Of a stretch of DNA of 64,000 nucleotides, positions 54,876 through 56,550 are shown one piece after another. A model generated the notes under the pieces. That model made no database searches and was not told the origin of the DNA. It saw only the letters and a list, made by a program, of their open reading frames with translations. The translations under genes were made by a program, and so were the position numbers. This stretch comes from Eledone cirrhosa (taxonomy: Eukaryota): positions 384,772,001-384,836,000 of the forward strand of contig OZ024740.1 in NCBI GenBank assembly GCA_964016885.1. The letters are read 5' to 3'. Each line of letters opens with the position of its first letter. Within the stretch, counting starts at the first letter, position 1.

Positions 54876-56056
54876 TATTGTTATACTTTGGGAGGGTCAT
54901 GTTGCCAATAACAAACACACGCACCAGTTGCTTTCACTTCAAATTATTATAATAAATTTATAAATTTATAAATTTCTGGTTGGTTGGTTCCACAACCAGA
55001 TAGTTGTTTATATATTGTCATAGTTCTTTCGCCTCTCCTTTGTTCTGTCCTACGCCATTTTGTTTCTGTGAAACAAAATGGCGTACGACAGAACAAAGGA
55101 GAGGCACAGAAACAAAGAAAGGAATCCCGAGTCACTGAAGAGGTCACAGAATATGTGACGAAAGAACTATGACAATATATAAACAACTATCTGTTTGTGG
55201 AACCAACCAACCAGCCAGAAATTTATAAATTTATAAATTTATTATAAATTTATTATAATAAATTGAAGTGAAACCAACTGGTGCGTGTGTTTCTTATTGG
55301 CAACATGACCCTCCCAAAGTATAACAATATCGGTTTCAACACACGATTTCAGATAAAGAATCTTGCTAAACAAATTCAGAAACGAAATATATATATATAT
55401 ATATATATATATATATATATATATATATATATATATATATATGTATATATATATATATATATATATATATATGTGTATATATATATATATATATATATAT
55501 ATATATATATATATATATATATATATATATATATATATATATATATATATATATATATATATATATATATACATATATTTATATATATATATATATATAT
55601 ATTGTTACACTTTGGGAGGGTCATGTTGCCAATAAGAAACACACGCACCAGTTGCTTTCACTTCAATTTAATTTATTAAATATTTATAAATTTCTGGTTG
55701 GTTGGTTGGTTCCACAACCAGATAGTTGTTTATATATATATAGTCATAGTTCTTTCGTCACACACTCTGTGACCTCTTCAGTGACTGGGGATTTCTTTCT
55801 TCGTTTCTGTGCCTTTCCTTTCTTCTATCCTACGCCATTTTGTTTGTGTGTGGGTTGCGTGCTCAGTTTGCGCATGCGCCACATCCGGGTGTCTGTGTGT
55901 GTTTGTGTTCATTTTTCTATTTTTCTATTTATATTTTTCTATTTGTTTGTTTATTTATTTATTTATTGTTGGTTGGTTGATTGTTCTATGTGTGTGTGTG
56001 TTTTCATTTTGTCTTGTGTGTGTTTTCATTTTGTGTGTGTTTTCAATTGTAAGTTG
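54876..56056. repeat. Direct repeat of 48588-49794 (mini fold-back, TA tract and pLTR), offset ~6.27 kb
   Basis: Near-identical sequence including TA-tract interruptions; ORF-track twins 48681/54947 and 49015/55281. Confidence 0.9.
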
Positions 56057-56412
56057 TAACAACAACGAAACTAGTTCAATATTCCTTGTCTGGCTTTCTG
56101 GAGAATAGAGGAGAGGTGTTTCCTCAAAAACCAGTATGACTCTAAAAACCGGTTTGTCTGTGTGTTTACATACAGAATAGCTGGCCACTCACAGTAAAGT
56201 GACCAGTGAAAAAACTTGGTACACCTACATATGTATACGTGTGTGTATTCATATACATACTAGTATTTCAGTATACATATATGGATGTACATCTTTAACT
56301 TAATTGTTTAAGCGTCAGTCATACAAAAGTGAGTTACAAACGAAACGAAATTTAATTTCGTTTCGTTATTTGTTTTTATCGTCTCCGTTGAACCGGTACT
56401 TACTCACACTCT

Positions 56413-56420
56413 ATGCAAAT
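56413..56420 (+). promoter_or_regulatory. Octamer ATGCAAAT (snRNA-type distal element candidate), once per unit
   Basis: ctATGCAAATtag; also conserved in diverged family members at ~37097, ~37568, ~38025 and ~44521 (- strand). Confidence 0.55.
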
Positions 56421-56505
56421 TAGTCTGCCCACTACTAATTTTCATAGAAAAAGCATATAACGATATGTGCTTTTACGATTCTCTAGAGAGGCCGGAAGAT
56501 AGGTA

Positions 56506-56550
56506 AATATTGCTGATGAGTTGTAACAACAACGAAACTAGTTCAATATT
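56506..56550 (+). ncRNA. Minimal type I hammerhead ribozyme, repeated every 467 bp (16 complete copies)
   Basis: AATATTG-CTGATGA-GTTG taacaa CAAC-GAAA-CTAG-TT-CAATATT; predicted cleavage after 56543. Confidence 0.93.

Follow-up and report, generated by a model that had tools for sequence, protein, structure and literature searches.

The 467-bp hammerhead retrozyme family RZ1 of Eledone cirrhosa is very likely moved by PLE-type machinery. In most sampled insertions this very young family shows the PLE signature of two start sites, head-to-head arms and (TA)n targeting. The RZ1 array described here lies in a window of 64,000 nucleotides (the whole stretch of DNA that was analyzed, to which all positions refer). 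It is probably a single insertion of this dispersed family, likely PLE-mobilized, with a 5' pLTR that duplicates the left end of a neighboring PLE, likely as a DNA copy that became joined to the array via a 6-bp homology. PLE mobilization of retrozymes has already been proposed, and the insertion-site evidence is the contribution here; published tail or inverted-arm ends of retrozyme arrays were not found in the main text of the open papers searched. The array and its first complete ribozyme are positioned as follows:

56052 to 64000, plus strand, continuing past the window end to G000:C1:384839120: 467-bp hammerhead retrozyme array RZ1, 23.7 units, 11,069 bp.
56506 to 56550, plus strand: first complete type I hammerhead, with a 7-bp stem I, CUGAUGA core, 4-bp stem II, GAAA and a palindromic ACUAGU stem III.

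The array contains three variant bases in total, and RZ1 units with 100% identity are present on many chromosomes. Its sequence fits the definition of an animal non-LTR retrozyme in PMC7229834: the units are tandem, non-coding, a few hundred bp long and each carry a type I hammerhead, and the dispersed copies are without LTR structure. Self-cleavage is predicted and a circular RNA is putative. Cleavage of the first complete hammerhead is predicted after GUU, at 56543, which corresponds to a cut following unit position 25. The ribozyme matches Rfam HH9 (37.7 bits, E 1.3e-6) under the gathering score of 52, and all 16 of the 16 complete cores in the window match HH9, likewise under that score. 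The hammerheads of relatives have compensatory stem II variants and either GUU or GUC triplets, the RZ1 monomer RNA is predicted to be far better folded than shuffles (z -9.0), and the assembly contains 9,276 copies of the ribozyme motif. A palindromic stem III fits the dimeric hammerhead form (PMC4209133), and in RZ1 it would imply that form for the predicted self-cleavage. A second hammerhead repeat family of about 470 bp, homologous to RZ1 and with the same palindromic stem III, is located at 36725-38660; its window copy is head-to-head, with a short-type end at the left and a long-type end at the right. A script found no end pairs of this second family, and its architecture is that of the window copy.

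Exact RZ1 ends at unit position 328 adjoining (TA)n number 1,875 in the assembly (control, 0), and a second end, at 254, occurs 163 times in one exact form. The far end of the array studied here, where the sequence-only reading had suggested looking for a TA flank, lies at unit position 328, the long end of the family, and is followed by (TA)n as is standard. Among the first 100 long ends listed on C1, where the anchored end was chosen for TA, an inverted arm runs up to (TA)n in 64, and in 63 of these it stops at positions 253-260 (script class). The rest include 7 tiny inverted stubs, 5 inverted arms leaving the locus, 2 inverted arms ending elsewhere, 9 that pass straight into (TA)n with no inverted arm, 12 classed as 'other' (several of which show short inverted stubs when read) and 1 off the locus. 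The same reading had also proposed a test for inverted termini at array ends, and these are indeed common, with an inverted arm or stub in at least 78 of the 100 sampled long ends (script class).

A long (328) end is paired with a short (253-260) end in 61 of 71 anchored pairs and in 10 of 14 head-to-head pairs from an unanchored set of 17 loci chosen by identity and not by an end; the other four unanchored pairs read as one long-type and one short-type end, and there are no long plus long pairs. Both ends adjoin (TA)n in the 64 inverted-arm loci and in most of the unanchored loci, and arm 5' ends are enriched at unit positions 241-300. Inversion joints recur at a 29-nt hairpin (unit positions 288-316) just upstream of the long end (L007, L036, L054, L076, L111 and L115). 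The (TA)n flanks of young insertions (L057, L009, L128, L139 and L142) often show many repeats of a single interruption, a pattern that repeated, telomerase-like realignment of the primer would give. Two loci 18 kb apart on C1 (L048 and L049) have the same retrozyme insertion structure; both are among the 100 sampled long ends and look like either a local duplication or a duplicate made in assembly.

A tail at one end, an inverted 5' copy and a bias for microsatellites are hallmarks of PLEs (PMC8557442), and the PLE tail corresponds to the interval that separates two internal start sites of the RT (PMC11167929). RZ1 insertions have an inverted 5'-truncated arm, a one-ended tail and a microsatellite target, and because the inverted truncated arm, the one-ended tail and the (TA)n bias are PLE hallmarks we infer that the family is mobilized by PLE-type machinery. 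The sequence-only reading had looked for physical evidence of this kind in the joint between pLTR and array. Such evidence is provided by the insertion ends of the family (long plus short, head-to-head, in (TA)n) and not by the joint itself, whose pLTR arm appears to be a local copy.

The PLE neighboring the array is a two-armed insertion with the following features:

49341 to 52052, minus strand: left arm of the PLE insertion, ending at the short end.
52040 to 54800, plus strand: right arm, with the long end after a tail of about 60 nt.
52056 to 54248: RT and GIY-YIG reading frame in the right arm, 5'-truncated, with no stops and with a CX4CX2C linker.
54557 to 54601: pLTR minimal hammerhead in the right arm.

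Its RT and GIY-YIG domains, CX2-5CxxC linker and minimal hammerhead assign it, by motif only, as a putative EN+ PLE of the Neptune/Nematis type, following the definition in PMC8557442. The closest named relative of its protein is an octopus protein with 70% identity. Next to (TA)n the family has 10,496 long ends and 11,886 short ones. Its head-to-head pairs in the first 42.7 Mb of C1 number 46, of which 41 are long plus short and 5 break the rule. An older, broken minus-strand copy is present at 44739-48082 and includes an Asn/Thr-rich N-terminal region. A sister family, PLE2, is 66% identical and is both intact and young, with 724 codons without a stop at L027 and copies to 99.8%. A further (TA)n-targeted two-ended family (L005:8700-8950 and other fetched loci) has a tail of about 80 nt, and 11 of 11 pairs are long plus short; no coding part or ribozyme was found for it in the fetched loci.

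That RZ1 has a PLE partner is judged from architecture, because no significant homology to the pLTR of the window PLE was seen and none of the 100 sampled RZ1 long ends forms a single uninterrupted element with a PLE reading frame. RZ1 has no significant homology to the pLTR of the window PLE (score 21, shuffle mean 24), and its score of 37 against PLE2 is weak, being reached by 1 of 200 shuffles. The queries of a tblastn partner search, run over 120 loci, were the window protein together with 40 of its 120 listed homologues; the search recovered the window family, its 66%-identical sister and distant families, and a retrozyme-like pLTR was seen in none of the 15 downstream regions read. At L037 an array is joined to a frameshifted, distant PLE, and at L061 and L058 arrays are joined to other sequence. 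PLE neighbors across (TA)n are frequent, as expected because the target is shared, and enrichment of the window PLE family at array 5' ends, another suggestion of the sequence-only reading, did not materialize (0 direct joints in the 100 sampled long ends). RZ1, the second retrozyme family and the window PLE share the long-end sequence TAT/CGT, which is a mild hint as to the partner PLE.

The joint between pLTR and array, and the segments to its left, are arranged as follows:

48864 to 49795: inferred local template, consisting of the 3' part of B, the TA tract and pLTR C of the left PLE arm.
54879 to 55387: A'B', a small pLTR insertion with two arms that duplicates 48591-49121, by sequence comparison.
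55387 to 55602: interrupted (TA)n tract, with the interruptions and run lengths of 49121-49340 except for a first run two units shorter.
55603 to 56057, minus strand: pLTR arm C', which begins at the PLE short end and is identical to 49341-49795 (0 differences in 455 bp).
56052 to 56057, plus strand: AGTTGT, the 6-bp microhomology at the head-to-head joint, by sequence comparison.

The joint had been placed at 56051-56056, and the assembly has it one base further on, with the minus-strand pLTR copy and the plus-strand 467-bp array overlapping in the six bases AGTTGT. The head-to-head geometry is as had been described and is the same as that of the PLE arms around 52040; the position at the hammerhead core/stem II boundary also stands, as the six shared bases begin with the final A of the CUGAUGA core and extend through stem II. 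Uninterrupted, the pLTR would read on as TTGTTC (from 49796), and CTGATG precedes the joint-phase sequence in every complete array unit. Shared homology of at least 6 bp arises in only 0.44% of 200,000 random joints of the pLTR and array sequences, and the homology therefore probably guided the join. Overlaps at 68 exactly measured retrozyme-retrozyme joints are 0-5 bp in 30 and 20-29 bp in 5, with a gap in 33, which puts 6 bp at the top margin of the ordinary overlap class. A breakpoint specific to the hammerhead is rejected, since the 39-nt ribozyme core holds 10 of 170 arm 5' ends versus 14.2 expected; two of the 170 lie within 3 nt of the joint phase versus 2.5 expected. Mobility of this chimera as a unit is likewise rejected, since a 28-mer spanning the joint occurs once in the 3.0-Gb assembly. 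Logan contigs from four runs (at most two samples) were placed on 55620-56510, and among the pieces listed, a minority of the total, none spans the joint.

Retrozyme and PLE alike are abundant and often share one (TA)n tract as neighbors (for example at L027, L078 and L113), as would suit insertion of a PLE into a pre-existing satellite. In the window, however, no array sequence is found to the left of the joint, the joint lies outside (TA)n and on the 5' side of the PLE, and the far end of the array is a standard insertion end; this origin is largely refuted and we regard it as extremely unlikely.

The pLTR arm most likely derives from local DNA, because it shares with the neighboring insertion both a 671-base identity that includes the (TA)n flank and a rare variant. 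Over 671 unbroken bases, the arm together with its interrupted (TA)n flank is identical to 49125-49795, which lies 6.3 kb upstream, and 216 bp of this flank were copied along with the arm; after a two-unit slip in (TA)n the identity resumes for 258 bp into the neighboring mini-insertion. Up to 48863, 5 substitutions and 22 gap columns separate mini-insertion AB (48591-49121) from A'B', whereas the last 258 bp show no difference, the pattern that a later invasion or crossover in B would leave in an older duplicate. Arm C' has one substitution relative to the right PLE arm, and a variant 29-mer within it occurs 3 times genome-wide versus 2,349 occurrences of the common form. Two of the three are the C/C' pair of this locus, and the third, L171, has 1 mismatch, 16 gap columns and a different flank. 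The variant is therefore not strictly private, and the copied flank is the stronger argument for local copying. The sole comparable chimera with a traceable source in the 100 sampled insertions, at L050, is also a copy of adjacent DNA: its retrozyme arm is capped by an inverted 38-bp piece of the sister PLE family that spans the joint of an adjacent mini-insertion, and must derive from that locus because this joint is unique.

These observations bear directly on the earlier proposal that reverse transcriptase switched between PLE RNA and retrozyme RNA at the joint. A chimera of two RNAs calls for the absence of copied genomic flank, and here both flank and neighbor were copied with the pLTR arm; the switch is left unsupported, as the arm and its (TA)n flank duplicate the neighboring insertion. 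A switch involving an ordinary PLE RNA, with the match to the neighbor produced by later gene conversion, would agree with the head-to-head geometry, the 6-bp homology and the presence of one short and one long end, and the same PLE sub-lineage does have one variant-bearing copy elsewhere. It nonetheless needs a rare chimera (0 of 100 sampled with the window PLE family) as well as a conversion, the copied TA flank lies outside a PLE cDNA starting at the short end, and the hammerhead position is not enriched, making it very unlikely.

We propose the following history for the family and the locus. In the family, PLE protein would nick both strands of a (TA)n tract, cDNA synthesis would be primed at two positions inside the retrozyme RNA (about 254-259 and 328), the unit would be copied through repeatedly, probably on a circle, and the two cDNAs would be joined head-to-head. 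At this locus the insertion would have been primed in the (TA)n to the right of B', with retrozyme forming only the long-end arm and a pLTR copy replacing the usual short-end arm. By invasion of the homologous B/(TA)n sequence 6.3 kb upstream, the left DNA end would have gained a copy of about 0.7-0.9 kb reaching into the left PLE arm, and would then have annealed to the array at AGTTGT. This could have occurred during sealing of the insertion or in later repair beside the 5.6-kb palindrome, both of which give the same sequence, as would an unequal crossover followed by a microhomology deletion. Templated genomic DNA is known at L1 insertions (PMC11702581). The palindrome, at 49214-54878, is near-perfect and formed by the two PLE arms, with 7 substitutions and 1 gap in 2,225 bp, and is likely a fragile site. 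Against this history, the composite, with a short-end pLTR at the left and a long-end retrozyme at the right, has exactly the normal shape of a single insertion and so fits a template switch too, and the rare variant is also at L171 and may have been in a source RNA.

The shape of the composite also suits two RNAs used in one retrotransposition, the second being a read-through transcript of the left arm of the neighboring PLE primed by (TA)n pairing. PLEs have been proposed to use read-through transcripts and template jumps (PMC3846280). At L095 a non-local, GC-rich 65-bp piece lies between two retrozyme arms and matches nothing else in the fetched loci; foreign templates thus do get captured, and two-RNA events in general may take place. 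At the present locus such an event has a slim chance: about 190 nt of flank would have to be copied ahead of the normal start site, the cap at L050 is an inverted local copy most simply seen as a DNA fold-back, and homology-led invasion of DNA accounts directly for the identity in B. A DNA template and a read-through RNA of the same locus are indistinguishable by sequence. A related single event, in which the window PLE family's own enzyme used one nick on a rolling retrozyme circle (at the long start) and the other on a read-through transcript of the neighboring PLE, is unlikely, but if true would name the Neptune-type window family as the motor of the retrozyme, with an enzyme that recognizes a circular RNA lacking homology beyond the TAT/CGT long-end motif.

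There is also a small chance that the assembly has merged two haplotypes at B/(TA)n, one allele with the full PLE and one in which the PLE, cut at 49795, is deletion-joined to the array, so that the joint is real and the duplication is not. The near-perfect direct repeat of about 930 bp, the long (TA)n tracts and the 5.6-kb palindrome could favor such a merge, and the point within B where divergence gives way to identity could reflect an assembly switch just as readily as a crossover. On the other hand, the window has no N, and a search for an empty or alternative allele returned one full match in the assembly for the right flank of the array, with no second copy. Assemblers normally need longer overlaps, which also counts against a merge.

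Copying of the array by a rolling-circle process is putative and is consistent with the data. Arm 5' ends are not enriched at the RZ1 cleavage site (3 of 170 versus 2.2 expected), and because they do not favor this site and the arms cross it repeatedly, the RZ1 template would have been uncleaved or circular. Of the 29 loci that hold at least three units, 17 are dominated by a majority unit, of which there are 11 distinct versions; all 15 units are identical at L035, all 6 are identical across both arms at L085, and the two arms of L119 differ at one site throughout. This homogeneity within insertions fits a monomer circle for each arm, and equally transcripts of uniform source arrays. In the array studied here units 7 and 15 share a variant, and periodic variants are present at L088 and L100; these suggest later block duplication or multimer templates, and argue against a pure rolling circle here.

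For an existing in vitro PLE assay the signature of the family predicts that synthesis starts at unit positions 254-259 and 328 of an RNA that is uncleaved or circular, and internal initiation would explain how a circle without a free 3' end serves as template. The single joint matters less than the family; its lesson is that a PLE-retrozyme chimera in a (TA)n hotspot used by both elements may be a local copy of DNA.

RZ1 resembles the animal non-LTR retrozymes described previously (PMC7229834; 10.64898/2026.07.22.740005) in its non-coding, AT-rich tandem units with type I hammerheads, its dispersed arrays, its highly self-paired predicted RNA and its co-occurrence with PLEs, although the 467-bp unit is slightly above the 150-450 bp range given in PMC7229834. 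Mobilization of animal retrozymes by PLEs was proposed from co-occurrence and shared ribozyme type (Cervera and de la Pena 2020, PMC7229834) and argued from pLTR homology (Li, Clavereau and Pollet 2026, 10.64898/2026.07.22.740005); the available text of these papers argues otherwise than from insertion ends, whereas the evidence for RZ1 is insertion architecture without significant pLTR homology. The inverted 5'-truncated arm, one-ended tail, (TA)n targeting and, in the window PLE, the pLTR minimal hammerhead are shared with EN+ PLEs (Craig et al. 2021, PMC8557442), which, unlike RZ1, have coding capacity. For non-autonomous PLEs of Chlamys such as MRC1, having 3' sequence in common with an autonomous family is the general rule, and the available text of PMC8557442 does not present them as hammerhead repeats. 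The two fixed 3' ends are like those of the two-start-site mechanism of Anolis PAc (Frangieh et al. 2024, PMC11167929), although the tails, about 60 nt in the window PLE and 69-74 nt in RZ1, are longer than the usual 30-40. The capture of local DNA at the 5' side of an insertion, joined by short homology, is similar to that reported for L1 5' ends (PMC11702581), but it involves a different enzyme, and here one end appears to have been led by the long homology of B and TA.
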